64,000 nt of DNA from a virus. A program made the position numbers and the translations under genes. Below the pieces are notes generated by a model. It saw only the letters and a program-made list of their open reading frames with translations, was not told the origin of the DNA and made no database searches. Below, piece by piece: positions 10,943 through 53,555 of the stretch. The stretch is from UHGV virus genome UHGV-1367859, one strand, 5' to 3'. Position 1 is the first letter of the stretch. Every line of letters begins with the position of its first letter.

Positions 10943-10975
10943 TTGCATATATCAGATATTTTTACTAACTTTGCA
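10943..10975 (+). promoter_or_regulatory. Bacteroidetes-type sigma-A promoter (-33 TTG / -7 TAnnTTTG)
   Basis: TTG at 10943-10945, then a 20-nt spacer, then TAACTTTG at 10966-10973. Confidence 0.5.
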
Positions 10976-11256
10976 CCCACTAGGACATAACAAGTACTAG
11001 GCTACATATCCAACCTACTAAGGTTGAAGAGGTTAAGATAGTTGAGAAGTCTCCAAGCCAACATGGGAAAGTAAAGGATACCATAAGTAGGGCAGAGGTA
11101 ATTGGAGCTTGAGATAAGAAGAGAAGAACTAATAGTATATAAACGCCTTCAATGCTATCTTAATACTATACCAGAGAGCTTAATTGGTGAATTGCTCTAG
11201 GTCTCTTTATATCTTTAAGTGAATAGGTTGATTATGGTAGCTAGGAATTAGAATAA

Positions 11257-12315
11257 TTGTACGAAGATATGTGGGATAATCTTTCAATGGCTGAAAAAGC
11301 TAATATTATAATGTTAGGTATAAAATCGGGTATTGTAGATTTGCCAACCATAAGAAGGGGTTATAATAGTTTTGCTAGAGGGGGATATACTAAGTGGAAA
11401 GAGAAGATTCAAAAGCATAAAGGAATTATTATAGATGGTGATGACACCTATGACTATAGAGGGTTTTATGATAGCAATCCTGATGCTGCTTGGGAGATGC
11501 TGAAAGAGTCTGGTACAAGTCACTTTCCTGATAGATTTAAGACTGCAAGTCACCCATCCTTCTCAGATGAATCTCAATACTCTGGCAGAGTAAGTAGACA
11601 CAATCCTAAAGGTATACAAGGTGGTCATTGGTATAATGACCACATATACCAAATGTCGGAAGACCAGTTCAGCACAGACTGGGATACAGATAGAACTTTA
11701 GATTATTTCAGTCAAGAAAATGAGTCTCCTGTATTATACGGACCAGATGGCTCTACAGTACTAAGAAGTATACAAGTTACGCCTCAGTCTTCTGCACTAA
11801 ATAGAAGTAGAGAGGCAACAAGCCCAAATACTGACTTTAGTAATGCACAGGACATGACAGGAACACAACAGTTTGGGGCTAATTGGTTAGCAGAAATACC
11901 TATTATAGGTACTAATCCTCACACTTGTCTTAATACAGTTACAGGGTTTTATGACCCTAAGAGTACTGTAGCATCTAATGCTAATATGGTAGCTAGACCT
12001 GAAGATTTTGGGTATAGAGAGATACCACAAACTGAGGCAGTCCCTGGAGATATTATTATACTTTCAAATAGTGATAATCATCCTACTCACGCTGTAATGT
12101 TTGACAGTGTATCTGAGGAAGAGGGGATACATAATGGGTATCATATTGAAGTAGGAGATACCTTAGTTAACTATTCTAATGGAGGGAGAAATAAAGGCGA
12201 CTATAGGTTGCAAGGACCATTGCCTAGATTTAATGACCCAGAGAGAGCAGGAGGAGATTTTTCAGGGGTACATAGGTACTATAGATACACTGGAAAAGGA
12301 AGAAAGAAAAAATAA
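11257..12315 (+). CDS. putative CHAP/NlpC-P60-like peptidase (cell-wall hydrolase)
   Basis: The C-terminal region has Cys...His spacing (GTNPHTCLNTVTGFY ... PGDIIIL ... HPTHAVMF) reminiscent of CHAP/NlpC-P60 domains. Confidence 0.35.
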   Translation: MYEDMWDNLSMAEKANIIMLGIKSGIVDLPTIRRGYNSFARGGYTKWKEKIQKHKGIIIDGDDTYDYRGFYDSNPDAAWEMLKESGTSHFPDRFKTASHPSFSDESQYSGRVSRHNPKGIQGGHWYNDHIYQMSEDQFSTDWDTDRTLDYFSQENESPVLYGPDGSTVLRSIQVTPQSSALNRSREATSPNTDFSNAQDMTGTQQFGANWLAEIPIIGTNPHTCLNTVTGFYDPKSTVASNANMVARPEDFGYREIPQTEAVPGDIIILSNSDNHPTHAVMFDSVSEEEGIHNGYHIEVGDTLVNYSNGGRNKGDYRLQGPLPRFNDPERAGGDFSGVHRYYRYTGKGRKKK

Positions 12316-12477
12316 TTCAGTAAAAAAAAAGTTGTATATAAAAAACATAATATGAAACTAGGCACACATAATTCAATGTCTTATCTTAAACCTAAAAGAT
12401 GGTGGATGAGACCTTTTCACTTCATAGCTAAATGTCAAAGTAGACATATAGACCATTAGTACAAGCTAGGTGCTAGA

Positions 12478-12924
12478 ATGTTTGATATAAGAGTCTCTTA
12501 TAATAAGTATGGAGAAGCTGAATTTAGACATGGCTCTATGGCATTTGAAGGAGATGTAGAAGGAGTATTTAAATATTTGAATAGTCGTAATAGAGCTATC
12601 TATGTAAGATTAATTCTAGAAGTGTCAAAGAATACTAAGAACAGGGAAGATAAAGAAAGACTGTTTATTAATGATTGTAAGAGATGGGCTGAGACATATA
12701 CCCATATTAAATTTTTCTGCGGAAGAAGAAAATTTGATTGGGTTCAGTTATATAAGTTTGAACTAGATGATATAGAGCTTGTTCAGAAAATCTCCTCCAT
12801 GACTGGTACAGTACTAGATGATTGGTGGCCTTGGCTATATGCAAGGTTCTTCAATAAGAAGAATCTAGAAAAGCATAGAGATAGTAAGGATTGGATGTTG
12901 ATTGATTTTATTGGAATGGTATAA
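12478..12924 (+). CDS. hypothetical protein
   Basis: 148-aa ORF. Confidence 0.4.
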   Translation: MFDIRVSYNKYGEAEFRHGSMAFEGDVEGVFKYLNSRNRAIYVRLILEVSKNTKNREDKERLFINDCKRWAETYTHIKFFCGRRKFDWVQLYKFELDDIELVQKISSMTGTVLDDWWPWLYARFFNKKNLEKHRDSKDWMLIDFIGMV

Positions 12925-13005
12925 AGTGTGATAATTTATCTATGGTAATATAAAAGCCATAGATAAATTATTTTATTATATAAGCTAAAAAAAACACTTA
13001 GCCTA

Positions 13006-13040
13006 TTGGATATATCATGGCTATTATATAACTTTGCATT
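13006..13040 (+). promoter_or_regulatory. Bacteroidetes-type sigma-A promoter
   Basis: TTG at 13006-13008, a 20-nt spacer, TAACTTTG at 13029-13036, and an ATG at 13055. Confidence 0.45.
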
Positions 13041-13054
13041 ATATATAAGAATAA

Positions 13055-14089
13055 ATGAAAACTAGAAAAGAGACTGTACTAGGTAAGAGATTAGTGTAGG
13101 GAGACCCTAATCTAGTTACCAAAGATGAAATACTTGTAAAAGAAGTTGGGAATGAAGTTAAGTTATATGAGAGAAGTGATAATGGTAAACTTGTGTTATT
13201 AACTCCTGAAAGTAATAAACCTGCACCTAAAGATTATTTAGAGGTTTATTGGGCTAATTTCTCATGTCATATGAACCCAGGAAACATGGTACCTACTGAC
13301 ACTGCGTATACCATAGCTATAGACGCTCTACCATTAAAAAGAAATGGAAAAAATATATAGTATTTTTTATTTTCATTTCCTTTTTAGGGAGACTACTCCC
13401 TCGATGAGGGAGAAGTGACTGTTCTTACGAGATTAAGAACAGTCGACAACTCCCATTTGTTGGAGTTGCAAGAATTAAATAAAATACATAATATACAAGA
13501 CGTCCTTAATATAATAACTAAGGATGCGTTTGTCGAGGACCTACATACAACCAATTATATTCCATCTATAATACGCCAAAAATCTAGAGGAATTCTTGGT
13601 TTAATTAAATTAACTGCTAATACAGACGATTATCATATTCTAGATGCAAACTTAGAATTTCTTCCTGCGTTTACACAGAAAGAGGAACTTGAGGAGTAGA
13701 AATCTTTATTAGATGGGTCATTCAGAGAATGGAGGTGGAAAGCTAACTTTAAAATAAAAAATATAGATAATTAGGTTAGAACCTTCCTAGCTGAAGAAAT
13801 GTGTTATGTAGATGGAACTGTGATAGCAGGTTCTATAGGACCTACTTATCTTCAAAGCATTCGCCAGGCAATTATTAAGAATAAAGAAGTCTATGTTGGA
13901 GAGGTCCCAGCTAATGGAGGCCGTCATAAAGTAGATAATGGGGTAATACAACATGCTAAGTATCTATTTACTAGAAATACCTATGTTGTTAACTAGGCCT
14001 ATAAAAGCAGATAGACTCCTGTCTCTCAGGAGGATCTTCGCAGGTATTTTATAAAAAACATAAGCCAACACAAAATTTTAACAAAATAA
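13055..14089 (+). CDS. hypothetical protein with in-frame TAG codons (amber-recoded)
   Basis: A single frame stays open from ATG 13055 to TAA 14087-14089 with about 7 in-frame TAG and no TAA/TGA. It joins the track ORFs at 13415-13699 and 13799-13996, which are in the same frame. Confidence 0.5.
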
Positions 14090-14168
14090 AAAAAAAAGAG
14101 AAGGAGAACATGCCACCTGTACCCGACGCGTCGAGTGTGGTGATTCTCCTTTTTTTTCTGTCTAAAAA

Positions 14169-14205
14169 TTTGCATATATCAAAAATTTTACCTAACTTTG
14201 CACTG
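14169..14205 (+). promoter_or_regulatory. Bacteroidetes-type sigma-A promoter upstream of the tRNA array
   Basis: TTTG at 14169-14172, a 20-nt spacer, and TAACTTTG at 14193-14200. The first tRNA starts at 14222. Confidence 0.5.
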
Positions 14206-14221
14206 TAATTCAAGAGAACAT

Positions 14222-14293
14222 TGCCACTTGGTGTAATGGTCAGCACATCAGATTTTGGTTCTGAGTGTAAGGGTTCAAGTCCTTTAGTGGCAA
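14222..14293 (+). tRNA. tRNA-Gln (anticodon UUG)
   Basis: Acceptor tgccact/agtggca, D-arm gtg-taatggtcag-cac, anticodon stem tcaga/tctga, loop ttttggt, T-arm aaggg-ttcaagt-ccttt. Confidence 0.75.
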
Positions 14294-14297
14294 CTAT

Positions 14298-14369: not shown

Positions 14370-14454
14370 CAAACTTGTTCGTGAAAAGAATGTAAATGGC
14401 AAAGAAGTGAGAATCATTACCTACCTAGCCTGTGAAGGTGCAAGTAGGGTGCAT

Positions 14455-14527: not shown

Positions 14528-14536
14528 CAATATATA

Positions 14537-18252: not shown

Positions 18253-18292
18253 TTTGGTAATTTAAATTATTTTTCATACCTTTGCATTGTTA
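18253..18292 (+). promoter_or_regulatory. Bacteroidetes-type sigma-A promoter dedicated to the suppressor tRNA
   Basis: TTG at 18254-18256, a 20-nt spacer, TACCTTTG at 18277-18284. The tRNA starts about 18 nt downstream. Confidence 0.5.
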
Positions 18293-18301: not shown

Positions 18302-18373
18302 TGCCTCATGGTGTAATGGTTAGCACAGAGGACTCTAAATCCTTTGGTCTCTGTTCGAGCCAGAGTGGGGCGA
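18302..18373 (+). tRNA. amber-suppressor tRNA (anticodon CUA), Gln-like body
   Basis: Acceptor tgcctca/tggggcg, 7 of 7 paired counting GU pairs. D-arm gtg-taatggttag-cac is nearly identical to that of tRNA-Gln(UUG) at 14222. Anticodon stem gagga/tcctt, loop ctctaaa with U33, CTA at 18335-18337, and A37. T-arm ctctg-ttcgagc-cagag. Confidence 0.75.
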
Positions 18374-18706
18374 CTAACTTTAATCACAATGAATAAGGAA
18401 GCTTTAAAATGGTTTATGTCCAATGTAATGCTCTAGCTAGAGCAGATTGACAAAGAGGTAAGTAACTCACTGTTGCAGGATGAACAGTTTGTTCTTGATT
18501 TTTATGATAAATTAAATGAAATAAGTGTTAGAAAATAAAAAAAATATAATTATGGAACAGGTAAAGATACCACACCCTATTGCTAGGATGGTGCTAACAC
18601 AGACTAAAATTATTCTTAATAGCCCCAACAACCAAGACAAAGAGTGGCTCAAAACTTTTAAAGAAGAACTTAATAAACTTATTAATCCTGAGTAATCTTT
18701 AGGAAA

Positions 18707-20242: not shown

Positions 20243-20514
20243 TGAACTACAATGACCTTGTAACTCAATTATCTAAAGAACTTAACTTACCACCTAGAGT
20301 AGTGGATAAAGTATACAAGTCTTATTGGAAGTTTATAAGGGATTCTATTCAAGGACTACCTCTTAAAGAGGATATTTCTGAAGAGGAGTTTCAGAAACTA
20401 AGGACAAACTTCAATATACCCTCTCTTGGTAAGTTATCATGTACTTATGATAGAGTTAAAAGGGTAAAAGAAAGATATAAATACATAAGAAATTTAAGGG
20501 AGAAGAATGATTAA
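20242..20514 (+). CDS. hypothetical protein
   Basis: 90-aa ORF. Confidence 0.4.
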   Translation: MNYNDLVTQLSKELNLPPRVVDKVYKSYWKFIRDSIQGLPLKEDISEEEFQKLRTNFNIPSLGKLSCTYDRVKRVKERYKYIRNLREKND

Positions 20515-20929
20515 AGTAAAGAAAATAAAGCCAATGTTCACTGCTCTCATTACAACAATGGACTTGTATGAGACAGACTCTCTCACTTCTGGAGGTATCA
20601 TTGACTCTACAAAGCAGAAAGGTACTGTAAAGGAGTATCAGAAGGTAGTTGCAGTTGGTGACTCAGTCAGAGGTATCAAGGCAGGTGACTTGGTTTGCAT
20701 AGATGCTACAAGATTTGCCGTAAAGAAGCATAAAGATAACTCAATAAAGACTGACATTGAAGGAGGCAATCCAATCCTTGAATACAGGTTTGATATTGTA
20801 GAGATGGATGGTAAGAGTTACATGCTTCTTCAAGATAGAGATATTCAATTCATTATTGAAGAGTATGATGAGATTGAGGAACCTAAGAAATCCAATCTGG
20901 TAACAGCTCCTCCTGACATCATAATCTAA
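20507..20929 (+). CDS. GroES-like co-chaperonin candidate
   Basis: The ETDSLTSGGIIDSTKQKGTVKEYQKVVAVGDSV...KAGDLV pattern matches the GroES/Hsp10 mobile-loop and core layout. A strong terminator follows. Confidence 0.4.
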   Translation: MIKVKKIKPMFTALITTMDLYETDSLTSGGIIDSTKQKGTVKEYQKVVAVGDSVRGIKAGDLVCIDATRFAVKKHKDNSIKTDIEGGNPILEYRFDIVEMDGKSYMLLQDRDIQFIIEEYDEIEEPKKSNLVTAPPDIII

Positions 20930-20936: not shown

Positions 20937-20975
20937 AGCCTGTATAGATTAAGTTCTGTACAGGCTATTTTTTTT
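20937..20975 (+). terminator. rho-independent terminator
   Basis: Hairpin gcctgtatagattaagttctgtacaggc followed by tattttttttt. Confidence 0.6.
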
Positions 20976-22174: not shown

Positions 22175-22583
22175 TATGACACTTGAAGATGTAATTGAAT
22201 CACTTAATGTGCATATACTGAATAAAAGAAGAGACTTGCACATCTTGTCAAACAGCCAGGAACACCTTGTTCTACAGAGAGTTATAGAACCTCATCCTAC
22301 ATTTAAGTCATATAAGAGGTATGAGTTTATATTATGGGTGGTTGGTAATGATTCAAAGTATAGATTACTTACTTTGACTAAGCAGGTTAATATGAGTGAT
22401 ATTCCTTCATATGCACAAGAGAGCTTTATTAAAGCTACAGAATCTGAATTTGTTACTGGGCTATTCGGCCTTATTCTAGATGGCAAGTCTTTTAATAAAA
22501 AAGACAGAACAATACTTGAAGATATTATCTATGGAGAATACCTCGGCTATGGAGATGAATGTGTACTAGACCCCCTTGACTGA
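22140..22583 (+). CDS. hypothetical protein
   Basis: 147-aa ORF. Confidence 0.4.
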   Translation: MLRKKQCMKICNMTLEDVIESLNVHILNKRRDLHILSNSQEHLVLQRVIEPHPTFKSYKRYEFILWVVGNDSKYRLLTLTKQVNMSDIPSYAQESFIKATESEFVTGLFGLILDGKSFNKKDRTILEDIIYGEYLGYGDECVLDPLD

Positions 22584-25500
22584 AGAACTCCTTGGGTCTT
22601 TACCTGAGGAAGTCAAGGAGGAGTTATTGGACACTATAAATAGTGTAGAACTTATAAAAAGACTTATCTCTCCTAATAGGGTATATGCTAAGGATAGACC
22701 AAGAGATGAGCAAGGAAGGATTATAGTAGACCTTGCCAATCCTCATATACTTGAGGATATGGATTATTTCAGACAACCAGCCTTACACTTTATGAAGCAT
22801 GGCTGCTATACTTTTCTAAGACCAAATTCTAATCCTAACAGTGAATACAGAAAGCACTGGGATGAGGAGATGAGGAGATGTAGAGAGGGTTATGTAAGGG
22901 AGAGTGATGGAGAATGGGTCACAGGATTCCTTTATTGGTTTCTTAATTACTGTCCCATGATGGTAAATAAGGTAATTTCTGGCACAAGGAAAGCTGTCAG
23001 AGTTGAGTCTTTCCCCTTCTTCTTTGAAGGAATCTATTGGAGATTTCACTATCTTCATCAAGCAAGAGAGGCTGGTAAACATGCCATAGAACTTGCAAAG
23101 AGAGGTTGTGCAAAGTCATATAGTCTTGCAAGTATAATGTCTCACAACCTTATACTTGGTGAATCTACTGAAGTAAAGAGGAGGGTTATTACTGTACTTA
23201 CTGCTTATCAGAAAGAGTATCTTAGTGACAGTAAGGATGGCACACTCTCTAAGTTCAAACCTGGAATTAACTTCTCCTTCAAAAATACTCCATTCCCTAG
23301 GCTCATGTTAAAGAACTCTCCTAATGAGATGGCATGGCAGATGGGCTACAAGGATGAGTTTGGTATTGAAAGTGGGTCATTGAATCAGGTGCTTGCTGTT
23401 TCTGCAAAGGATGACTCAGAGAAGTTAAGAGGTAAGAGAGGTTGGATTCTATTCGAGGAGATGGGTTCTTTTAAGGGACTTCTATCCCTGTATGACATCA
23501 CAAGAAAATCTGTAGAAGATGGTGACTATACATTTGCTACAATGTACCTTGTAGGTTGTGTATGTGCTGGTACTAAGGTATGGACATTAGATGGCAGGAA
23601 TATCAATATAGAGGATTTAAAGAGAGAGGATGGTATCATAGGATTTACAGACTCCTTTGAGTCAGGTACTGAACCTAATATTCGCCTCACAAGAGGGATT
23701 ACCAAAGAACCTATAATGAGTTCTATAAGTATTGCTAAAAAACCATGTGTACTTATTAAACTGAGTAATGGAAATGAACTTAGATGCTCTACAGACCATC
23801 CAATTCTTACTCAGAAACAAAGAATGAATCATAATGGGTCTATAAGGTATTATGAAGAAGTATTCAAAAATGCTGGAGCTTTAAGTGTAGGAGATAGAAT
23901 TATAGAGAGTAGGGAAGTTCCAATATTTGGGACAGATACCATGTTTGACCCTAGATTAGTAGGTATGCTTATTGGAGATGGTTCTTATGGATTAAGGCAA
24001 TCCCCCAAGTATAGTTCTGAGGATAAAGAGCTTTTAGACTATGTAAAGCATAGATATGAATGGTCATTATCTGCTACTCATATTACCAAGAAAGGAAAAA
24101 TATACGAGGATATAAGAATTAAAGGTATTTGTAATAAATTAAGAGAATTAGGTATTTAGGGGCAAGTAAAATCCAATAAAAGGCTTCCTATCAACTATTA
24201 GACTCTTACAAGAGATGATACCTCACTATTGCTATCTGGATTATATGATACTGATGGTAGTATAAGCTTTAATAGAGACGGATATATATCTTTAACTCAA
24301 AGCAATAGGAAAATATTAGAGCAAGTTAAAGTACTGTGGAGAAAATTTGGAGTAGTTGGCACTATTGTGGAGACCAAGCCAAAACTATGTTCTGATAGGA
24401 AAGATAGAAATTCTTGGTTTACTCTATCTATATCAGGGAGACATAATTGTACAAGAGTGTGTGGTGTGCTTCAACTTCTTGTTCCACACAAGAGAGATTG
24501 CCTTAAAAGGATAATGGACTATTATAATAGCAATCCGAGTATGAAGGCTCAAAAATATCCAGAGGATATAATAGTTCACAAAGTTACTTCTGTAGAAGAG
24601 ATAGGTGAACAAGAAGTATATAATTTAACTGCTGGATTAAGTCATACCTACTTGGCTAACAATATAGTAACTCATAATACTGCTGCTGAGGATGAGTCAG
24701 ACTTCAGTTCGGCAAAAACTCTTCTTTACAATCCAGATGGTTACAATATTCTGGCTATTGAGAATGTCTATGACAGACCTAAGCAAGGAAAGCCTACCTT
24801 TGGATTTTTCTTTCCTTCTTATGTAAATAGGGCAGGATGTTACAACAAGGATGGTGTTTCTGATGTAACAAAGGCTCTCATAGAAATTCTGTTGGCAAGA
24901 CACAAAGCTAAATATTCTGCTGACCCTAAGTCAGTATTAAGAGTTATTGCCGAGGACCCAATTACACCAGCTGAAGCTATCATTAAAGTGAAGGCTGCCT
25001 ACTTTCCTACAGTAGCTCTTACTGAGAGATTGGCTCAACTTGACTCAGACCCTCATGCTTTTGATGATGTTTACATAGGTAATCTTGCCCTAGCAAGTGG
25101 TAATAAGGTAGAGTTTAGAATAGGTAATGATGTGCCTATCAGAAAGTATGGAGTTGACAATTCAACAGTAGGTGCTATTGAGATATTTGAAATGCCTGAG
25201 AAACAAGCAAATGGGGATGATTTCAATATGAGATATATTATAGGCCATGACCCTGTGGATAATGATTAGGCAGAGTCTTCTTCTCTTTCTTCAACCTTTG
25301 TACTTGACCTGTTTACTGACAGAATTGTAGCAGAATACACTGGTAGGCAGGCATTTGCAGATGATAACTTTGAGATAGTAAGAATGCTGTGTCTATTCTA
25401 TAATGCCAAGTGCATGTACGAGGCTCATCCATATAGTCAGTCTGTACCAACACCAAATGGTATGAAACTGTGGAAGGATGTTAAAATAGGGGATAAACTG

Positions 25501-26904
25501 TTTTCCCCCACAAAGGGTGAAGTAACAGTAACTAATATACCAGTTGATGAGTACATGCCTATATATAAGGTTAAATTAGCTGATGGCAGAATTGTAGAAG
25601 CTAGTAATAATCATATATGGCTAGTATATAAAGGAACTTCTAGAACTCCTATCGAAATTACTACAGAAGAAATGCTTAGGTCAGGGTTAATAACTAAACA
25701 CAAGCAACATAAGTTTTTTATACCTGAGCATAATGGGGTTGATTATAGTTATAAAGAATTGCTCATAGACCCCTATACTATGGGTTTATTGCTTTCTGAA
25801 GGGAGTCTAACAGGAGGTCATTGTGGCAAAAATTATGTACAGATGTCCTCTTCTAGGGAAGATATGGATTTCTACAAAAAGAATATCCCATATAGAGTTA
25901 ACTATATTGGTAACAAGGGGTACTCTTGGCATATTTATATTCCAGGATGTAGAGATATAATGACTAAATATGGGTTATATGGAGCTACAAGTCACACTAA
26001 GTTCATTCCAAATGAATATCTTTTCAGTAACTATGTTCAGAGAATGGAACTACTGAGGGGAATAATGGATGGAGATGGGTGTGCCAGAACTAGGGGGGCT
26101 AGTGTATTTATTACATGCTCACAGTCACTTGCAAATAATGTATTATCCTTAGCTAGAAGTTTAGGGATGAAAGCATGGCTTCAGACTCCTAAAGAAGGGG
26201 TATATAGAGTGTTGATATCTTCCATATATAAGATATTCAAACTCCCTAGGAAAGTAGTGGAGCAACATACTTATAAGCCTTATAGTAAAGGAAGTAGAGC
26301 CTCAGCTATATTAGGAAAGACTGCGATAGATAGTATTAAATATTCTCACATGGAAATGGGCAAATGTGTCACTGTAGACTCAGATGATGGACTATATATG
26401 ATAGGAGATTATGTAGTAACTCATAATTGTAATAAGAAAGGACTATATGCCTATTTCAATAAAATGAATTGCACACACCTACTGGCAGATACTCCTGAAT
26501 ATTTAAGAGACAAACAGATGATTAAGTATTCTGCCTTTGGCTCAAATGCAAAAGGTATCAATGCGAATGCTACTATCAACAATTATGCTAATAACCTGAT
26601 AAGGGATTGGCTACTTCAGCCAGTTCCAACTATAATAAAGGAGGATGGAGAAGAGAAAGAGGTCAATATTCCAAGGCTCTATTCTCTAAGAAATAGAGCA
26701 TTACTTGAAGAGTTAATTTCCTACACTCCTGAACTTAATGTGGATAGAATCAGGGCATTAGGTATGGTTATGCTGTATAGACAAGAGAAGATTATACTGT
26801 ATAGAGATAATCTTAATGCTAAGGCACAGGAGGAAGTCAGTAGTTCATACTTAGGCAATGATTCTTTCTTCCAAAGGAATTACTCCCAAGGGTATATACA
26901 GTAA
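22576..26904 (+). CDS. terL: terminase large subunit interrupted by two LAGLIDADG inteins; contains 3 in-frame TAG codons
   Basis: The track ORFs at 22576-24159, 24229-25269 and 25384-26904 are all in frame 1, separated only by TAG codons at 24157, 24211 and 25267. Intein hallmarks are C-VCAGTKVWTLDG ... LIGDGSYG ... LYDTDGSI ... VTHN|T, and C... LLSEGSL ... IMDGDGC ... VVTHN|C. The exteins carry a terminase ATPase/nuclease-like sequence. Confidence 0.65.
23557..24678 (+). mobile_element. intein 1 (Hint splicing domain plus LAGLIDADG homing endonuclease)
   Basis: Begins at a Cys (block A CVCAGTKVWTLDG) and ends at ...NIVTHN with +1 Thr. It has two LAGLIDADG-type motifs and contains two in-frame TAG codons. 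Confidence 0.55.
25411..26427 (+). mobile_element. intein 2 (Hint plus LAGLIDADG), N-terminal boundary approximate
   Basis: LLSEGSLTGG and GIMDGDGCA are LAGLIDADG motifs. The C-terminus is DYVVTHN with +1 Cys. The N-terminal Cys could be 25390 or 25411. Confidence 0.45.
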
Positions 26905-26949: not shown

Positions 26950-26990
26950 TTGCACAAGTTAAAGGTTTTGCTTACCTTTGCAGCACATTT
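26950..26990 (+). promoter_or_regulatory. Bacteroidetes-type sigma-A promoter
   Basis: TTG at 26950-26952, a 20-nt spacer, TACCTTTG at 26973-26980. The ATG is at 27005. Confidence 0.5.
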
Positions 26991-29403: not shown

Positions 29404-30318
29404 ATGAGAAAATTTGATAATATAATACATTCAAATTCAGCCCCTCCTACCAATAGTCTGTGGCTCCATAATGACAAACTTCAATACCATAACAATGGCA
29501 AATGGACTGATATAATATTAACGATAGGAGAAGACAATCCAGAGGCTAAGTTAAAGTTTGAAGAGAGAGAACTGAGTCCCCTACATGACTATGTACCTGT
29601 TATACTTGTAAATAGAGACCGCGACGCGCCACTCAAAATTTTAGCAACGTTTTATAATGGTCAAGTAACAGCAATTGCCGATGGCAAGGCTATTATTTTC
29701 AATGTAGACTACAATGAGAATTGGCTTGTAAAGGAGACTAGAATTATTGACCTTACTCTACTTCCTACCTATGTTGACCTTGAACTAGGTGACTCTCCTG
29801 AGATTGAAGCATATAATAGAGAACAGCTGTCTAGGGTGGCAGGAACATAGTTCCTTGTTCATGCTGACTATGGCATTGGAGTAGGTTCTTGGTATTATAA
29901 TGCAGGTGGAGAAGCTACCATCACTACAGCATCAGGTAACAGAGTGCATTACATATTAACTGCGGATGGAGCTTGTAGAAGGGATGCTGACCACTTTGAC
30001 CATTCTGAATTATTTTATGATTTAGGGGTTATTAACTTAGCTGAAATAACTCCTACAACTATAATAAATAAAGAGATAACTGACTCTGTAGGGGTGGCTC
30101 AGTTCAAAAAAGCTTCGAATGTAGTTCTGACTGTTCACACTTCAAATGGAGATTTTGAAGTTAATTGCCCTCAGGTTTCAATGGGTCCTATTCAAAAGAC
30201 ATTTAATAGTCCTAGCATTGTAGCTGGTAATGAAGATAGTTGGAATTATCTTAAGATAATAGCTAACATCCAAACTGACCCAAGCAAAGTATTAATCACT
30301 ATTGAGGCAATGCAATGA
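29404..30318 (+). CDS. virion structural protein candidate (1 in-frame TAG)
   Basis: Track ORFs 29404-29850 and 29944-30318 are in the same frame and are joined only by TAG at 29848-29850. The gene ends with TGA. Confidence 0.5.
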
Positions 30319-31109: not shown

Positions 31110-31152
31110 TGTAGATATGACTAAATAGGAAAAGGATGAACTATTTAATGAG

Positions 31153-32214: not shown

Positions 32215-32237
32215 TAAATGATAAATGAATTTTAAGT

Positions 32238-33295: not shown

Positions 33296-33317
33296 AATAT
33301 AATATTTTTTTTTCTAA

Positions 33318-33360
33318 TCACAATAAATCTACTTATTCTATCGTGTAAGTAGATTTATTG
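33318..33360 (+). repeat. long perfect inverted repeat (hairpin)
   Basis: acaataaatctact ... agtagatttattgt, a 14-bp stem, directly upstream of a -7-like TAACTTTG at 33364-33371 and the ATG at 33374. Confidence 0.5.
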
Positions 33361-38047: not shown

Positions 38048-38090
38048 TACGAAGGGAGACAGTAGTGTCTCCCTTTATTTTTACATTTTT
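38048..38090 (+). terminator. rho-independent terminator
   Basis: Hairpin gggagacagtagtgtctccc followed by tttattttt. Confidence 0.6.
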
Positions 38091-38123: not shown

Positions 38124-38160
38124 TTGTACAGTACAGAAACTTTTTCTACCTTTGCAGCGA
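38124..38160 (+). promoter_or_regulatory. Bacteroidetes-type sigma-A promoter
   Basis: TTG at 38124-38126, a 20-nt spacer, TACCTTTG at 38147-38154. The ATG is at 38183. Confidence 0.5.
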
Positions 38161-40875: not shown

Positions 40876-40920
40876 CAAAATAAGGGGGAGAGAGCAATTC
40901 TCTCTTCCCCTTTCTTTAAC
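40876..40920 (+). terminator. rho-independent terminator
   Basis: Hairpin gggggagagag-caat-tctctcttcccc followed by tttcttt. Confidence 0.65.
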
Positions 40921-41950: not shown

Positions 41951-42745
41951 ATGTCGCAAATTGAAAACCTTATGACTGCGGAAGAAAGAAGAATAAGAAA
42001 TTAGGAATTTAGTAATGAGTTTGATATAATTTACAACAGCATTACAAGTAATCAGGCTCCTGGTTTGGATGAATATGAGAAGTCTGTATTTCTAACTAAG
42101 GCTCAAGATGAAGTAGTAAAAGCTTATTTTAGTCCAAAAACTAATAAGTCTCAAGAAGGTTTTGACGGAAGTGAGATAAGGTAGATTGATTTCTCTATGC
42201 TCGTGGGAGACCGTACAATAGCAGATGCAGACTCTTTTTTAGATGCACACTTTGGCAATAGAAAAAGCAGTAAAAGTATCATCCTTCAAGATGATATATT
42301 CATGTTTATCAACGAGTATGTTACAGTTTAGAGAGGTAATAACGAAACTAGATTAACTGTTATCCCTATTAGTTACTTGGAGTATAATAGACTCACTAGC
42401 AAACCTTACAAATATCCTCTAAAAAACCAAGCTTGGAGATTGCTTATTTCTGACAGTAATAGAAAGAAAGTTGAATTAATTTTAGGATATTAGGATTCCT
42501 TAATTAGTTATACCTATAGATTTGTTAGACGTCCTAAAGCTATTAGACTAAGTACATTTGACGGTCTTACTATAGGAGGTGAGAGTAGTGAGGAATGTTG
42601 TGAGCTTGACCCAATACTATTTCCAGAGATTATTCAAAGAGCTTGTGAGCTAGCTAAGGCTGCTTATATTGGAGACCTTACTTCACAGGTTGCTCTTGGT
42701 CAGACATCACAGACTAATATGGGTATTGTAACTCAAAGTAGATAA
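41951..42745 (+). CDS. amber-recoded paralogue of the downstream gene (4 in-frame TAG)
   Basis: 264 codons. The N-terminal EFSNEFD...DEYEKSVFLTKAQDEVV aligns with EEFSNEFD...DEYEKSMFLTKAQESIV of the ORF at 42748-43443. It ends with TAA. Confidence 0.5.
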
Positions 42746-45311: not shown

Positions 45312-45345
45312 TTGCAGGATAAGTAAATTTTGCTTACCTTTGTAC
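45312..45345 (+). promoter_or_regulatory. Bacteroidetes-type sigma-A promoter
   Basis: TTG at 45312-45314, a 20-nt spacer, TACCTTTG at 45335-45342. Confidence 0.5.
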
Positions 45346-46035
45346 CTAAATATAATCTTAGTGCAAAGGTAAGCATTTTTAGTATGGTTAGAGGAATTAT
45401 ATACAGATATTTATCTCCTAGTGGGAAGTCTTATATTGGACAAACTACTAATGAGAAACTAAGACGAAGAAGTTGGATGTCTGATAAATACCACTATGCT
45501 GGAGCTAAAATAGATAGAGCCAGAGCCAAGTATGGTAGTAGCTCATTCTTATATGAAGTATTATATATCTAAGAAGCTCGCAATAGAGGACCTAAATAGA
45601 TTAGAAATATACTACATAGGGCTTTATGATTCATATAGGAATGGTTATAATTGTACTATAGGTGGGGATGGAGTCCAAGGATTCAATATGAGTGTTTCTC
45701 AAAAAGAGCATCTCAGGGAATGTAATCTAGGAAAGAAATTATCTGCATCTACGAAGAGAAAGATAGGAATTGCTTCTAGAAGATGGCAAAATACTCCAAT
45801 TAATAGAGGAAGGATGTCCTCTATAAGAAAAGGCAGAAAAAATCCGAATGCAATAGCAGCAATGACCTTAGCTAAAGAGAGACCTATATTGCAGTTCACA
45901 ATGTCTGGTGAGTTTATTAGAGAGTTCCCCAGTATTAAGGCAGCTTATGAGTTTCTTGGTAAAGAAGGTAACATAACAAGTGTGTGTAAAGGTAGAAGAG
46001 CCTCTGCCTTTGGCTATGTATGGAAGTATAAATAA
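45330..46035 (+). pseudogene. GIY-YIG homing endonuclease split by a frameshift
   Basis: ORF 45330-45572 carries IYRYLSPSGKSYIGQT (GIY-YIG). ORF 45532-46035, in another frame, carries YNCTIGGDG plus NUMOD-like repeats. Together they make one GIY-YIG protein interrupted by a +1/-1 shift. Confidence 0.5.
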
Positions 46036-46787: not shown

Positions 46788-47495
46788 ATGAAAGAATATT
46801 GTTTATATAAACATACCACCCCATCAGGCAAAGTATACATAGGTATAACCAGCCAAGACCCACTTCACAGATGGAACAATGGTAAGGGTTACTTTAACTG
46901 CAAGAACTCTCCCTTCAAAAATAGTATAATAAAGTATGGATGGGACAATATAACGCATGAAATACTTTATACTGGAATGACAGAACAAGAAGCTATAAGT
47001 AAGGAGAAACAATATATAGCCTATTATAAAAACTTAGGGGTCAGTCTTAATATAACAGATGGGGGAGAAGGATGCACAGGGGTTACTCCTTGGAACAAGG
47101 GTATTAAAGTTCCTTATGAAAAATCCAATAAGAGAAGGGGATGTACTCTTACAGAATCTCATAAGAAGAAGTTGAGTATAGCCCATAGAGGAAAATCATC
47201 TAGAGGTTCTGGATGGAAAATGAGTGAGAAACAAAAGGAATGTCTTAGACAAGTAAATCTTGGTAGGAAAAGACCTATGTGTGAAAGGTTGAAAATATCT
47301 GAGAACTCACCAATGTCTAAGATTGTACAAATGCTTGATAGGGAGGGAGAAGTACTAGCTGTGTACAAATCAGCTACAGAAGCAGCCTTAGCTCTAGGAG
47401 TAGATAAATCATGGTTAAGTAAGTGTTGCAGGACTGGTAAGCTTTGCAGAGGATACAAGTTCAAATATGGAGGAGTTCAGAAAGAAGGTACTTAA
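46788..47495 (+). CDS. GIY-YIG homing endonuclease
   Basis: LYKHTTPSGKVYIGIT ... NITDGGEG with C-terminal NUMOD-like repeats. Confidence 0.75.
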   Translation: MKEYCLYKHTTPSGKVYIGITSQDPLHRWNNGKGYFNCKNSPFKNSIIKYGWDNITHEILYTGMTEQEAISKEKQYIAYYKNLGVSLNITDGGEGCTGVTPWNKGIKVPYEKSNKRRGCTLTESHKKKLSIAHRGKSSRGSGWKMSEKQKECLRQVNLGRKRPMCERLKISENSPMSKIVQMLDREGEVLAVYKSATEAALALGVDKSWLSKCCRTGKLCRGYKFKYGGVQKEGT

Positions 47496-47991
47496 AGTAA
47501 GTGAGTCAAGAGTCTATAGAGTGAATAACTCATATGGAGTATATGATGCCTACAAGTATATCAGAAAGAACAAGTGGTTTGATATAGGACAACCTGTCAC
47601 AGAGCATCAGTTCTACTCCATTATAAGAAGAATGAATAACCTCCTTGCTGATACACTCATACATGGACATGACATAGAACTGCCATGCAGGATGGGTACC
47701 ATAGAGGTAAGGAAGTATGATGCAAGAGTCTCAATTGAAGATGGCAAGGTTAAGACAAACCTTCCTATAGATTGGGACAGAACACTTAAACTATGGTCAG
47801 AAGATGAGGAAGCCTATAAGGAAAGAACACTCATTAAAATGGAGGAAAAAGAAATCTTCAAGGTCTACTATAACAGGATTGATGCAGACTACAACAATAA
47901 ATCCCTCTATGAATTTGTAGTGAACAGAGACCTTAAAAGGAGATTGAAGCAAAGAATTAAAAGTGGTAACTTTGATGCTTTTAAGATATGA
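47467..47991 (+). CDS. hypothetical protein
   Basis: 174-aa ORF. Confidence 0.4.
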   Translation: MEEFRKKVLKVSESRVYRVNNSYGVYDAYKYIRKNKWFDIGQPVTEHQFYSIIRRMNNLLADTLIHGHDIELPCRMGTIEVRKYDARVSIEDGKVKTNLPIDWDRTLKLWSEDEEAYKERTLIKMEEKEIFKVYYNRIDADYNNKSLYEFVVNRDLKRRLKQRIKSGNFDAFKI

Positions 47992-48686
47992 CAAAATATA
48001 TAAGCATAAGACAAGTTCTTGATAACCTGATGGATAATCCCTTGCTACAAGATTTATCTTTAGAAAGGGCAGTCAATTATGCTGTCAGGTTCATACAGAA
48101 GGTAGGTATGCCCTCAATATTCCTTGAGAAAACAGAGAAGGTTGAGATAGAGAATTATAGAGGTAAGCTACCTTGCGACTTCTATGAAATGATACAGGTA
48201 AGAGCAGTTGGTCATAACTGTAATGGAGTACTTCATGAAGTATTCAGATACTCTACTGATTCATTTCATATGAGTCCTGATAAGACAAGAGATAATGACC
48301 TTACCTATAAACTACAGGGAAGTTGTATTTTTACTTCTATGAAGGAAGGAACTATAGAAGTAGCTTATAGAGCTTTCTCGACAGATGAAGAAGGATTCCC
48401 TCTCATACCAGAGAATGGTTCTTTTGAGGAAGCACTTGAGCTATTTATAAAGGTAAAACATTTTACAGTTCAGTTTGAGCTTGGTAGGATAACTCAACAG
48501 GTTCTGCAACACGCAGAACAACAATATGCTTGGGCAGTGGGTCAAGCTCAGTCTGACCTTGTTAGGCCCTCTATTGACCAACTCCAATCTTTCACTAATT
48601 CTTGGAATACTTTAATCTCCAGGACTAATGAGCATAGCAAAGGGTTTAAAACTCTTGGTTCTAAGGAGTATATCAAACTTCATTAA
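47988..48686 (+). CDS. hypothetical structural protein
   Basis: 232-aa ORF. Confidence 0.45.
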   Translation: MTKYISIRQVLDNLMDNPLLQDLSLERAVNYAVRFIQKVGMPSIFLEKTEKVEIENYRGKLPCDFYEMIQVRAVGHNCNGVLHEVFRYSTDSFHMSPDKTRDNDLTYKLQGSCIFTSMKEGTIEVAYRAFSTDEEGFPLIPENGSFEEALELFIKVKHFTVQFELGRITQQVLQHAEQQYAWAVGQAQSDLVRPSIDQLQSFTNSWNTLISRTNEHSKGFKTLGSKEYIKLH

Positions 48687-48696
48687 TTATATTAAC

Positions 48697-51600
48697 ATGA
48701 TGTATTCAGATAATCATATATTTAAAGGCCTAAGGAGAGATGTTCACCCATCAAGACAAGATGAGTCTTTTTTATGGGATGCTTTAAATGTGAGACTTAC
48801 TAATAGGGATAGTGATACTGGGTTTTCTATCACTAATGAGAAGGGAAATACGGACACTGGTGTTGTTTTTGATGGGTAGTACGTAGGACATTGTGTGCTT
48901 AATAGATACTTAGTAGTATTTACTGTAAGTTAGAATGACACTCAGGAAGTATCTAGAATATATAGACTCCATGAAGATAAAGGGGAGTGGATTAAAGTTA
49001 CTCTATTTGAAGGAGTGCTAGGTCTTGATGCTAATCACCCTCTAGAAATATTAGGGGATAGTGAGTCAGTTCTTGTGAATAAGTTGTATTGGACAGATGG
49101 AATTAACCAGCCTAGAGTTATTAATATAACTGCCCCAGAGTTGAAACTTCCTGAAGATATAGCTAGTAAAGTTATAGTAGACGGAGTTAATTTCTCAAAT
49201 CCATAGAAAAGTGAGGGAGTTTCCTAGGAAGTTATAGAAAATCTAGAAAAGTGGTATGAAAAAGGAAATTGGATATACAGAGCTGAGTCTCCATTTGATT
49301 TTGTATAGAACCTATAGTTAAAAGAAAGAGTACTGGTAGGTAGAAGTTCCAGTCATGGAGAATTTTCTCCTGGAGTAATTCAATATGCTCTTACATACTT
49401 TAATAAGTATGGGCAAGAAAGTAACATATTCTATGTATCTCCCATATAGTATATAAGGAATTATGATAGAGCTGGTAATCCAGAAGAGAAGGTTATAACT
49501 TCTTTCACAATTAAAGTAGAAAATGTTGATAACTTTGATTATATAAGGGTTTATTCTATACATAGAACTTCACTAGACGCATAGCCTACAGTTAAGATTG
49601 TAGCTGACTTAGACTTAAAAGATTGCTAGGAGGAAAGTGCTGAAGGAGAATACTGGTATGATGTGTTTGGTTCTGAGGATTAGCTGGTAAAAACAATTGA
49701 ATATACAGATACTGGTCTTACTGGTTCAATAGAAGACCCTGCTAAACTATTATATACTGGGGGACAAACAATATTAGCTGGAACTATCACTAGCAAAGAA
49801 GGAGTGATGTTTTATGGAAACATTACTGTTCAGAAAAATACTAAAGAACTAACTACATTACTTCAATAGGAAGAGGCTGAAAATGGGGACTCTTTAGGGT
49901 TAACAGATTGTTTTTTAGCCGAAGATACTTATGATAATTAGGGTATAAATAAATACTATCCTTATCTACCATAGTTTAAGCCTGGTCATTTTAAGGCAGG
50001 AGAAACATATAGATTAGGAGTTCAATTTTAGTTTAAGACTGGAGAATGGTCAGAACCTATTCCATTAAACAAAGTCATAAGGAATAGTGATGGTGATGGT
50101 GATGGTTTTCTTGATGTAGAGTTAAATAATTCATATTCTTGGGGCACTATTGACGGGGTGGATACTAAGGAACTTTAGTTATTCCCTAATGCAACTGCCT
50201 CATTATTAAAAGCTGGAGTAAGAAGGGCTAGAACTTGTGTTGTTTTCCCTAAGCCAGCGGAGAGAAATATTATATGTTAGGGAGTTTTAAATCCTACTGT
50301 CTACAGTGTGAGAGGAAGGCACATGAATAACCCATATGCAATGTCATCTTGGTTCTTTAGGCCATCTCCTGTATATGTAGATGGAAAGCCAAAAGAAACC
50401 TCTACCTCGATAGATTAGGGGTCGACTATTTAGTATAAACATAATTATACACTTTTCAGTGGAGGTAATAGAAGTGCTGAAATATAGTCATCTCTGCCAG
50501 GAGATTCCAATAAGTCAATATAGGAAATTATTTCTCCCTCTGATGGTATAAAGTCTCATTATTCAACTTTTGCTGTTGATAGTAACTTAGTTACTTTACA
50601 TTCCCCAGAAATTGAGTATGGGTCCTATATAAATACTACTCAATTAGAAGGAGCAAGGCTAAATATTGTTGGAGCCGCTAGCCTACATGGATTGTATGGA
50701 GATATAGATTTAGCAGTGACCTCTAAAGCTAGTTCTCAGGCTGGAGGATTTATACATCATCCTGTAGGATTTCCAGTGAACTGTACTACTCCTAATACTA
50801 CTGTTAATGGAGGATTTGTATCATCATGTTGTTTTGAAGATAAAATACTAAGAGGGGATTTTTTAGATGAGGATAGGACAGGTATTGTTAAATATTTAGT
50901 TTATCCTTGGCATAGAACAGGCTCACTAAATAATGATATTGTCAGGTCTCCTGAGATTATAGAGAAATCCGGAAGTGATAGAACAGCTATACTAAAATGG
51001 AAGATTATTTCCAATTTAAAGTATTTTGAAAGTAAGTCAACTTTTTTTAACTCTAATAACCACAATATTAAAATTACAACTCCTAAGTTATTCTCTTCTA
51101 AAGAGGTTACAGGCTTAACTGTTCGTGTTCCACATTTAGACTAGGATGTACTATACTTTGGAAATGTAGATGATATTGTATCAGCCACATCAGATTATCC
51201 TATTTATGCTGGTACTGATGATAGTATTTCACAAGTATCCCCTACTAATGTATCTACTTCTGGGGAGTCAGTAAGAATGAAGTATAAATCATCTCCTCAC
51301 TTAGTATTCTCTTTATATGATGAGGATAACCCTAAGGTTATTCCAGTACTACCATACACTTCTGTTACTGGTGAGACTATAACTTCATAGTATACCCCCT
51401 CTGGATGGGAGAATAATACTTCTACCAGTACTTCATATCCTATCCTTTCATTTATAGGCTCAAAAACCTTTTATGGGACTTATAACAAAGAGGGGAACTT
51501 AGTACTAGATGTTGACGATACAAGTGTGACTGCTCTAGGAACCTATCAGATTGTAATGGCTTACATTGGATCCATAGCTAAGCGTGTATTGGTTAAAAGG

Positions 51601-53466
51601 GTAAAGATAGGAGAAGCAGGGTATTGGCAGGTACAAAACTCAGGAACTAAAGTGACTGTTTTAGTGAAGAAAGGATGTATAATCTATCATCACTATGTAA
51701 ATGGTGAGTGGGTAGGAGTTCTTCAGAATGCGGGGCCAATAAAATGGGGTCCTTTTGAAAACTTACAGGATGGTCATGATAACTTTTAGTATCTTGGGGA
51801 TTAGGTATTATTAAACTTAAAGGTATCTCTCGGAAATATAGTTGGTATTACATCTTATAAAATGTATTCAGAGCCATCTACAGATAATACAGATAATACA
51901 GATAATACAGATAATACGTTTACCATCCAGAATAGCACTCTGTAGTTACTTGAAGAGGATAAAGATTATTCCCCCACATTACCTATAGCTGAATTAACAT
52001 AGTGGGTTGACCCAGACACTAGGTTTGGAGGTAAATCGGATGAAGCTATCAAAAATAACTTATGGGTTCCAAGTAGTGAGTCAGTTCCTCTTGTATCAAC
52101 TCCACATAAGATAATTACGATTCCTTATGCCTATGGGGATACATGGTGTACAAGATATGATTGTGTAAAGACTTATCCTTTTGCAGATGATGATACTAAT
52201 TAGATAGTAGAAATAGGTTCATTTATGCTTGAGTCACATATTAATCTTGATGGAAGATACGATACTAAAAGAGGGCAGCTATCCAACTTCGACATTACTC
52301 CTGACTCTTATAAGATAAATGAAGTATACTCTTAGTTAGATAACTTCTTTAACTACAGAACACTAGACAAGGACTATTATAAAATAGATACATTTCCTTA
52401 CTAGGTAGCATGGTCCTTAAAGAAAAATCCCTAGTCTATAATTGACCCATGGACTAATGTCACTTTAGCTAGTACCTTAGACCTTCCTGCTGATAAAGGG
52501 TCTGTAACATGTCTAACCTCCATCAATGATACTCTTATTGGCTTCTAGGAAAAATCTATTAGCTAGATTATGTTTAATTCTAGAGTATAGCTCAATCCTA
52601 CAGACGGAGTACCTATTGAGATAGGAAATTCAAACAGAGTAGATGGGTTCAGGATTCTATCCTCTACTATTGGATGTGCTAATAAATGGTCTATTATTCC
52701 TACCTCAACAGGTCTATTCTTCATAGATAACGAGTCCAAAAGTATTTATAGATATGGTTAGGAATTAGTAAATGTAAGTGAGCTTTCAGGAATGAGTTAG
52801 TGGGTTAAGAATGATGTTGACTTATCAGAGTGGACTCCTACAGGAATGGGAGTAAGAAGCTTTGTTGATAATATGAATGGGGATGTATATTTCTCTCCAG
52901 CTCATGGCGAAGAAGCTTTATGTTTCTCAACTAAGCTTAACTAGTTCACTTCCTTTTTAAGTTATGGTGAAACTGAAGGTATGTTTGACTTTGAAGGTGG
53001 TTTTTACTCTATAAAATAGGAATAGGATAAAGTTAGGCTATGGGAGAACTTCACTGGGGTATATAATGAGTTCTATGGTAACTTTAAACCATTTAGTTTC
53101 ACTTATATATCTAATGGTAATTCTCCTTACACAAAAATTTTTGACACAGTGGAAGTTAATGCTGAAGTACGGAACTTTGGCCAAAAGGATAATTCTGATA
53201 AGCCATTTGATTTTATCCAAGCAGAGAATGACTATTAGAAAGCTTATACTGACCTCACTAATAGTAGAGATATAAGGAAGAAGTTTAATATATGGAGGAT
53301 TAATATTCCTAGGTCTCCTTATGTAGCACAAGATGGTAAAGATGTTATAAGGCACTATGGTAGGGCAAGGATTAGAAATCCATGGAGTGAAATAACTCTA
53401 GGGAGTGCCTCACATAAAAACTAGAGAGTGACAATATATAATGTATCTACTAAGTACTCTATGTAA
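48697..53466 (+). CDS. giant tail-fibre/tailspike-like protein, about 1,590 codons with about 50 in-frame TAG codons
   Basis: Frame 1 stays open from ATGATG at 48697 to TAA at 53464-53466 with no TAA/TGA. It absorbs the track ORFs 48628-48879, 49015-49206, 50692-51144 and 51526-51789, which are all in this frame. It carries DNT and DG repeats and is followed by a terminator. Confidence 0.6.
51888..51923 (+). repeat. 4 tandem copies of a 9-bp repeat (gataataca) inside the tail-fibre gene
   Basis: gataatacagataatacagataatacagataatacg encodes (DNT)4. Confidence 0.6.
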
Positions 53467-53467
53467 T

Positions 53468-53512
53468 TAAAAAGGTGTAAGAAAAACCTTACACCTTTTT
53501 AATTAATTGTAT
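53468..53512 (+). terminator. rho-independent terminator
   Basis: Hairpin aaaaggtgtaag-aaaaac-cttacaccttttt. Confidence 0.55.
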
Positions 53513-53516
53513 TATA

Positions 53517-53555
53517 CTATTGTATTAGTGGGATATTTTTGCTACATTTGCATAC
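53517..53555 (+). promoter_or_regulatory. Bacteroidetes-type promoter (-7 TACATTTG; spacing to -33 about 23)
   Basis: TACATTTG at 53543-53550 upstream of the ATG at 53569. Confidence 0.35.

Follow-up and report, generated by a model that had tools for sequence, protein, structure and literature searches.

Promoters of crAss-like phages have been characterised experimentally in phage phi14:2. In the study describing them (Drobysheva et al., bioRxiv 10.1101/2020.03.07.982082; Nature 2021), the early genes are transcribed by a virion RNA polymerase (RNAP) and lack a common upstream motif, and the middle and late genes are rifampicin-sensitive. The 5′ ends of four middle promoters, P070, P075, P108 and P110, were located by primer extension; an “extended tripartite motif,” with two blocks similar to -35/-10 elements, is common to these promoters, and the E. 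coli sigma70 holoenzyme initiates in vitro at phi14:2 promoters, correctly at P070 and P075. The same study reports 126 similar sites in genomes of crAss-like candidate genus VI (the crAss001 clade), located upstream of portal, gp092, RNAP, IHF and tRNA genes. The crAss001 genes of the middle and late classes likewise are likely dependent on host RNAP (Shkoporov et al., PMC8375218). On the host side, the consensus of the Bacteroidetes primary sigma factor is TAnnTTTG at -7 and TTTG at -33 (PMC7366714 and PMC2483708, and Bayley et al. 2000 through these). Here we analyze a 64,000-nt stretch of the virus genome UHGV-1367859 (hereafter the window), in which an earlier note, made from the letters only, had pointed to a recurrent two-part motif, TTG-N20-TA(A/C)CTTTG, as the promoter of its transcription units and as a sign of a Bacteroidetes host.

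A rigidly spaced two-box motif in intergenic DNA

We searched both strands of the 64-kb window for TTG-N20-TAMCTTTG, using 100 shuffled sequences as control. The results show eight matches against 0.16 expected, at 10943, 13006, 14170, 18254, 26950, 38124, 45312 and 47944, all of them on the plus strand, and none of the 100 shuffles reached eight. A position weight matrix (PWM) trained on the seven sites of the earlier note scored these at 33-49 bits, cleanly apart from the rest of the window, and two additional matches exceeded the random-sequence maximum of 12.9 bits, one at 53520 on the plus strand and one at 8781 on the minus strand (Table 1). The former accounts for the note's end coordinate of 53,555; the latter corresponds to the minus-strand copy placed by the note at about 8751-8790, which is indeed found by the PWM but carries one mismatch, TTC for TTG. 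All seven plus-strand sites of the note were thus recovered, with one start corrected by the exact pattern search from 14169 to 14170, and the set analyzed below comprises nine sites scoring 17-49 bits.

The spacer is exactly 20 nt in 9/9 sites, as had been claimed, and other spacers between 15 and 25 nt occur in the window at background level only. The -7 box reads TA(A/C)(C/A)TTTG throughout and is followed by CA in eight of the nine; the -33 box is TTG in 8/9 sites, the other being 8781(-), and is preceded by an extra T (TTTG) at only two. The full consensus extends beyond the two boxes, to tTA-N5-TTGcA.at.tcA.a.aTTTT.c.TA(A/C)CTTTGCA.

On a recoding-aware gene map, in which intergenic DNA amounts to 9.0% of the window, each of the nine sites is located between genes and has the orientation of the genes that follow it. 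Exact matches number 8 in 5.4 kb of intergenic DNA, where a composition-matched model expects 0.12 (0 of 2000 runs reach 8), against 1 in 58 kb of coding and RNA-gene DNA. Equal frequency in coding sequence, which the earlier note had named as counting against its reading, is thus clearly not seen. The distance to the next gene or tRNA is 17-41 nt at seven sites, close to the 15-40 nt proposed; the proposal does not hold for 10943 (283 nt) and 8781(-) (5 nt).

Other candidates in the window were discarded. The match at 47944..47974(+) is a chance match, as it lies inside the coding sequence 47467-47991, is missing from the top list of the PWM, and scores at background (-10.1) on the host-derived matrix described below. 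A degenerate TCG-N20-TAACTTTGTG at 33341 reached 6.5 bits, under the random maximum. Scanning the window for the extended -7 box alone (TAnnTTTGYA) gave no further gene-strand candidates, the leftover matches having no -33 box or lying on the wrong strand.

From its statistics, position, strand and conservation and from its match in geometry and sequence to host promoters, all observed here, we consider it very probable that the nine sites are promoters read by the host RNAP with its primary sigma factor, of the Bacteroidetes sigma-A type. TTG would serve as the -33/-35 element and TAnnTTTG(CA) as the -7/-10 element, with the rigid 20-nt gap equivalent to the canonical 17-bp hexamer spacing that is optimal for primary-sigma holoenzymes. 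The use of sigma-A in this phage is suggested by the homology to the characterized phi14:2 promoters together with the match to host promoters.

Conservation of the boxes and match to host promoters

The window belongs to a crAss-like phage of the Steigviridae (Asinivirinae-like) whose best DNA matches (74-77% identity) are cr116_1, Kolpuevirus, DAC15/17 and crAss001-like Bacteroides phages. The best matches thus belong to Steigviridae/Asinivirinae, with cr116_1 (Pamirivirus), Kolpuevirus, Kehishuvirus and DAC15 among them, and cr116_1, crAss001 and phi14:2 are all members of Steigviridae, subfamily Asinivirinae. The tRNA-terminase-portal-capsid module is syntenic with that of crAss001.

We collected 80 related contigs that carry the portal protein, with 71-100% portal identity to the window. 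TTG-N20-TAnnTTT[G/A] is present upstream of the portal gene in 79 of these loci; in the remaining one, the sequence ahead of the gene is just 93 nt long. Spacers of 19-21 nt were allowed in the search, yet all were of 20 nt, with a sequence that differs among clades; among 17 non-redundant versions of the portal promoter, TTG and TA..TTTG are invariant, and TT at about -15 and the upstream TTA are also kept. Retention of boxes and spacing while the spacer sequence diverges is what selection acting on the boxes would leave. An open reading frame (ORF) of 650-700 nt with a homing-endonuclease-like C terminus is inserted between the promoter and the portal start codon in about 20 relatives; the motif remains upstream of this ORF, and the insert is thus placed under the portal promoter. 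In 295 kb from 17 diverse relatives, N20 matches on the gene strand number 55 against 2.3 expected, with a single match on the opposite strand. For a genome-wide view we used the complete ΦcrAss001 genome, in which 12 N20 sites lie on one strand and 7 on the other, with 1.3 expected for each; they occupy orthologous positions, ahead of the tRNA array, gp7, the portal gene, gp23, gp27, gp31-MCP, gp40, gp45 (N19), the gp50-gp49 RNAP operon (64785), gp84 and the TROVE gene. TAnnTTTG boxes of this genome lie at 1626, 4500, 11587, 16913, 25038, 27040, 35084, 41938, 64785(-), 89207(-) and 98348(-).

These data bear on the idea that the motif copies have no function and look like promoters by chance only, having been multiplied by duplication or by mobile elements (homing endonucleases, for example). 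Three copies do share a long identical block, TTG[C/G]ATATATCA, and one copy precedes a homing endonuclease. Yet duplication would not readily explain conserved boxes and spacing around a diverging spacer, the strict strand and intergenic bias, or orthologous positions that persist across genera, and we regard this explanation as scarcely credible.

The host comparison used 120 blocks of Bacteroidales genomes, anchored on the Bacteroidales 16S primer site Bac32F. In these blocks the bipartite pattern occurs 128 times with N20, against 8.4 expected, and 65 times with N19, against 10; other spacers are at background. Eighty-two of the N20 sites are promoters of rRNA operons, 170-520 nt upstream of the 16S anchor, with the consensus TTTGG...TACcTTTGCA, and the other 45 are independent of rRNA, with the consensus tTTGg...TA..TTTGCa. 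At the positions left free by the pattern, the host favors TAccTTTGCA, identical to the extended -7 box of the phage; given that the rRNA promoters carry this sequence, the phage box is that of the strongest promoters of the host. Scored at the pattern-free positions only, on a PWM derived from the 45 non-rRNA sites, the nine phage sites range from -2.5 to +15.2, against a background of -13.1 +/- 7.1.

Both the match to the Bacteroidetes primary-sigma consensus and the comparison with a Bacteroides promoter matrix, which the earlier note had suggested, thus came out in its favor: the consensus boxes are present, the N20 excess recurs in Bacteroidales DNA, and the extended -7 box is shared. The proposed Bacteroidetes host agrees as well with the nearest relatives, which are Bacteroides phages (Steigviridae). 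The accompanying contrast with E. coli -35/-10 promoters fared less well. In 50 kb of E. coli K-12 DNA that included rrnB and ribosomal-protein operons no N20 peak was found, and a scan of the window for an E. coli-type -35/-10 consensus was uninformative, yielding 86 sites (68 +/- 7 expected) that were linked to neither strand nor genes and failing to single out the nine sites. But the contrast was overstated, since the 17-bp geometry is the same and sigma70 uses the phi14:2 homologues in vitro.

Several observations weigh against the reading as host-type promoters. The -33 block TTG[C/G/T]ATA..TCA reaches at least 10 of 12 matches in 16 of 61 phage sites but in only 2 of 126 host sites, and the phage has a T-run at about -15 where the host favors an A-run, so that something more than plain sigma-A recognition may contribute to the phage sites. 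The host set itself is biased to the neighborhood of rRNA operons, its blocks being anchored on 16S. Two sites are atypical: 10943 is followed by no recognizable gene over the next 283 nt, and 8781(-), with its degenerate -33 box and a distance to its tRNA of only 5 nt, lacks a motif-bearing counterpart in crAss001, where the minus-strand tRNA-Arg, which corresponds to the other tRNA-Arg of the window, has no motif upstream.

One form that an additional contribution of this kind could take is a phage factor (a sigma-appropriator, an activator or a repressor) needed in addition to host RNAP, which would bind the extended -33 block TTGCATATNTCA and/or the upstream TTA elements and set middle versus late timing. 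In line with this, the block is far more common in phage than in host sites, and in a hand-made list it is strongest at tRNA-array, small-gene and phi14:2 “middle” promoters; the phi14:2 study calls the motif “tripartite,” with one block beyond those resembling -35/-10, and crAss001 encodes putative transcription regulators (gp11, gp13 and gp104). The phage-specific -33 block is probably this published third block. In a position-based test in 16 relatives, however, sites far upstream of the portal gene had a mean of 8.2 matches to the block, sites just upstream 8.1 and those downstream 8.0, which does not separate the classes; the middle-versus-late division suggested by the hand list was consequently dropped. 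Moreover, the sigma70 holoenzyme alone is reported to initiate correctly at P070 and P075 in vitro, and a shared block could stem from common descent or promoter duplication. We consider a required phage factor quite unlikely.

Transcription units, terminators and stop-codon recoding

Genes run leftward over 1-10.8 kb of the window and rightward from 10.9 kb on. If the nine sites are host-read promoters, as we favor, they would drive the middle and late units of the rightward part: ORF 11257 behind its leader; an ORF recoded for TAG; the array of tRNAs; the suppressor tRNA together with the downstream tRNAs and the terminase block; the portal/tail block; the scaffold/capsid block; the homing endonuclease with a tail-associated block; and a gp45-like gene with the virion-RNAP block. 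Initiation is predicted about 5-7 nt past the final G of the -7 box, which would leave leaders of 12-20 nt on mRNAs and tRNAs, and essentially no leader at the uncertain site 8781(-). PHROGs matches confirm the portal gene (27005) and the major head protein (39360), as well as the terminase, in its segment 25384-26904, and a GIY-YIG homing endonuclease that is split in two (45384/45532). The downstream features named in the earlier note, i.e., the tRNA array (14222), tRNA-CTA (18302), the portal gene and the scaffold-like and major head protein genes (38183/39360), were all borne out, except that its “GIY-YIG pseudogene” is this split homing-endonuclease ORF.

Five sites adjoin or overlap terminator hairpins: a hairpin and a T-run lie just upstream of 13006, 14170, 38124 and 53520, and a hairpin overlaps 45312. 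Such terminator-promoter junctions suggest that the sites mark boundaries of transcription units, and the intrinsic terminators would separate the successive units. In the hairpin at 45331-45380, the 5′ arm is the -7 box of 45312 and the 3′ arm is an inverted, minus-strand second copy of TACCTTTGCA (45371); it probably terminates the upstream capsid operon. Further hairpins with T-runs that resemble intrinsic terminators lie at 20937-20975, after ORF 20507-20929, at 40880-40915, after the major capsid gene, and at 6225-6300(-) and 10499-10518(-) in the leftward block; no motif copy was found after any of these four.

Individual sites have counterparts in related genomes. That of 10943 is 628-658 in crAss001, about 340 nt ahead of gp3, the alignment being limited to the promoter. 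The 283 nt that follow it in the window (10974-11256) form a leader with no ORF in any frame, even when TAG is read as sense; a noncoding RNA in this leader was considered and rejected, with no Rfam family, a fold z of -1.1 and conservation with crAss001 ending at the promoter. Site 14170 corresponds to crAss001 1626 and to position 313 of the relative L002 (IMGVR_UViG_3300045988_042591), 38124 to crAss001 27040, ahead of gp31-gp32, and 53520 to crAss001 41938 (N19) and to position 1308 of another close relative, L207. Behind 18254, the amber-suppressor tRNA comes first, then tRNA-Thr/Gly/Met and then the genes up to the terminase; the orthologue of this site is kept in relatives.

The leftward block differs. 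No copy of the motif was found at its divergent start, and it probably uses another promoter class, so that the statement that the motif marks the transcription units stands for the rightward tRNA and structural units, where the sites are intergenic, on the gene strand and in several cases preceded by terminators, but not for this block. In the divergent region upstream of it (10817-10942), a segment rich in G+C that may be structured precedes long runs of A/T; no TAnnTTTG box was found on its minus strand, and this region is a candidate site for promoters of another class, early and read by the virion RNAP. Synteny links the leftward block to the right end of crAss001, which has the minus-strand tRNA-Arg and is the location of early genes.

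This arrangement also bears on whether the motif could be read by the giant virion-packaged RNAP of the phage itself instead of the host enzyme. Polymerases of this kind are carried by crAss-like phages, the right end of the window contains homologous genes (alignments to crAss001 gp47), and crAss001 has a motif copy before its TROVE gene, which is reported as early. Against this, the motif is missing from the divergent start of the very block that is syntenic with the early-gene end of crAss001, host rRNA promoters have the same motif and spacing, and the phi14:2 study finds no common motif for the early, rifampicin-resistant transcripts and assigns the motif promoters to rifampicin-sensitive genes. 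We judge reading by the virion polymerase to be very improbable and retain host RNAP as the favored reader.

The leftward block also contains a full-length transfer-messenger RNA gene at 7606-8001(-), detected by Rfam (RF00023, 69.5 bits, E = 5.7e-25) and missed by ARAGORN. Just upstream of 8781(-), the sequence GGTTCCATAGCTCAAATGGATAGAGCAACAGACTTAAGA at 8790-8850(-) looks like a tRNA's 5′ half, with the acceptor, the D-arm and some of the anticodon arm; called by no tool as a tRNA, it may be a tRNA remnant.

The window encodes 23 tRNAs, including the amber suppressor tRNA(CTA), and TAG is a sense codon in many of the rightward (late) genes, with up to 40 in-frame TAGs per ORF (40 in 48628-53466) and essentially none in the leftward block. 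Compared with crAss001 homologues, Gln is the residue most commonly aligned to TAG (12/47). The portal, scaffold-like and major capsid genes contain no TAG within their annotated coding ranges. In-frame TAGs per 1000 codons amount to 7.5 in the window, 6.9 in L001, a strain near-identical to the window phage, 9.9 in L064, which has the tRNA-CTA, and 0.2 in L002. The latter, the closest relative whose sequence differs, is not recoded, with a portal protein 97% identical to that of the window, and its orthologous tRNA array lacks tRNA(CTA), the counterpart of 18254 lying directly ahead of tRNA-Thr. The code change therefore appears to be very recent in this lineage.

Since one of these promoters has the suppressor tRNA as its first gene, a further proposal can be made, namely that the TTG[C/G]ATATNTCA block, together with the T-run and the TTA elements upstream, is the binding site of a phage factor that redirects or times host RNAP, and that this factor or promoter also sets the switch to the code in which TAG is Gln. 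If so, it would decide when translation of the late genes that contain TAG becomes possible. We hold this to be unlikely.

Read with TAG as sense, the large terminase gene (22576-26904) is a single frame of 1442 codons, compared with 762 aa in crAss001, with 80% identity over 725 aligned residues. This excess length together with the identity implies some 680 aa of intein-like (Hint/homing endonuclease) insertions. An intein would also fit the PHROGs matches to families of primases and helicase loaders found midway in the segment 25384-26904.

Table 1. Predicted promoters and other features of the window, and relatives with an insert ahead of the portal gene
Position	Strand	Feature	Evidence and context
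8751..8781	-	Weak, uncertain promoter copy, TTC-N20-TAACTTTGCA	PWM 16.7 bits; intergenic; 5 nt before tRNA-Arg(tct) 8745-8672
10943..10973	+	Predicted promoter at divergent junction, extended -33 block TTGCATATATCA	Exact match; PWM; intergenic; next ORF 11257-12315
13006..13036	+	Predicted promoter of TAG-recoded ORF 13055-14089	Exact match; PWM; hairpin and T-run just upstream (~12935-12975)
14170..14200	+	Predicted tRNA-array promoter (tRNA-Gln start 14222)	Exact match; hairpin and T8 terminator just upstream (~14103-14157)
18254..18284	+	Predicted internal promoter, amber-suppressor tRNA(CTA) 18302-18374	Exact match; PWM
26950..26980	+	Predicted portal-operon promoter (portal ATG 27005)	Exact match; PHROGs portal; conserved in relatives
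38124..38154	+	Predicted promoter of scaffold-like gene (38183) and major head protein (39360) operon	Exact match; terminator hairpin just upstream (~38052-38082)
45312..45342	+	Predicted promoter of split GIY-YIG homing endonuclease (45384-45572, 45532-46035)	Exact match; PHROGs
45331..45380	+	Terminator-like hairpin and AUUUUU, -23.4 kcal/mol	z = -4.0; 0/200 shuffles fold as well
53520..53550	+	Predicted promoter TTG-N20-TACATTTGCA of recoded gp45-like gene 53569-56043 and downstream virion RNAP-subunit-like genes	PWM 25.0 bits; terminator hairpin just upstream (~53470-53500)
13055-14089, 29404-33296, 41951-42745, 48628-53466, 53569-56043, 57808-63999	+	TAG-recoded rightward genes	In-frame TAG
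Upstream of portal		Relatives with pre-portal insert: L007, L013, L015, L032, L033, L040, L042-L044, L051, L053-L059, L063, L071	

Comparison with known promoter systems

The analysis provides a promoter and terminator map for the 53 kb of rightward genes in a crAss-like phage that is uncultured and has a recoded stop codon, and supports assignment to a Bacteroidales host from sequence alone. It does not overturn current understanding; it identifies the published middle/late promoter of crAss-like phages with the strong, rRNA-like sigma-A promoter of the host, in its canonical 17-bp hexamer spacing. That a conserved promoter of host type stands directly ahead of the suppressor tRNA has a modest bearing on models of transcription-timed code switching. 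The TTG-N20-TAnnTTTGCA signature could serve for annotating transcription units and predicting hosts in Steigviridae metagenomic contigs, and is also a possible source of strong Bacteroides expression parts.

The nearest known system is that of phi14:2, which belongs to the same family (Steigviridae, Asinivirinae-like) and has the same TTG-N20-TAnnTTTG architecture. In our own reading of P070, P075, P108 and P110 from the phi14:2 genome at the named genes, all four fit this pattern, and three of them share the TTG[C/G]ATA..TCA block (at least 10 of 12 matches) with window sites 10943, 13006 and 14170; P108 (TTGCATATGTCAAATATTTTACGTAGTTTTG) and 14170 (TTGCATATATCAAAAATTTTACCTAACTTTG) are near-identical. 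Several locations are also common to the genus VI motif and the window, namely the portal gene (26950), the gene before the major capsid protein (38124), the tRNAs (14170 and 18254) and the RNAP-subunit block (53520). By analogy, the mapped 5′ ends, rifampicin sensitivity and sigma70-type use in vitro known for the phi14:2 homologues would be expected to hold in the window phage. The two differ in that the latter is uncultured and has a TAG-recoded genome, and in that the -7 box runs into GCA in the window, as in Bacteroidales hosts, versus GTA/GTG in phi14:2, whose host is Cellulophaga. Our literature search returned no paper describing a crAss promoter as “TAnnTTTG.” The promoter class is nonetheless already published for this phage family and expected in a Bacteroidales phage, and the window is another instance of it.

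Compared with Bacteroidetes sigma-ABfr promoters, the phage sites share both boxes, the N20 spacing optimum measured here and the extended -7 box TAccTTTGCA; they depart from them in that the -33 box is usually TTG, not TTTG, the spacing is rigid instead of variable, and the phage sites have in addition the TTGCATA..TCA block, the T-run at about -15 (an A-run in hosts) and the upstream TTA elements. The Bacteroidales rRNA-operon promoters, of the form TTG-N20-TACCTTTGCA, have a -7 box identical to that of sites 18254, 26950 and 38124, while their TTTGG, the stretch rich in G behind the -33 box and their conserved downstream CCGCTTT are absent from the phage sites. With E. coli sigma70 promoters the geometry is shared, TTG-N20-TAnnTT being equivalent to TTGnnn-N17-TAnnTT at the canonical 17-bp spacing, but the -10 hexamers of the window (TAACTT, TACCTT and TACATT) match TATAAT poorly, the TTTG extension is specific to Bacteroidetes, and E. 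coli DNA has no N20 peak. Finally, a 2026 study predicted -7/-33 promoters in a B. fragilis phage unrelated to the window phage (PMC13139388); Bacteroides phages such as this one, Bf12P1, are lytic and have predicted intergenic, host-type -7/-33 promoters containing TTTG ahead of co-expressed gene blocks (PMC13139388), but they belong to unrelated lineages for which a shared extended motif is not reported.

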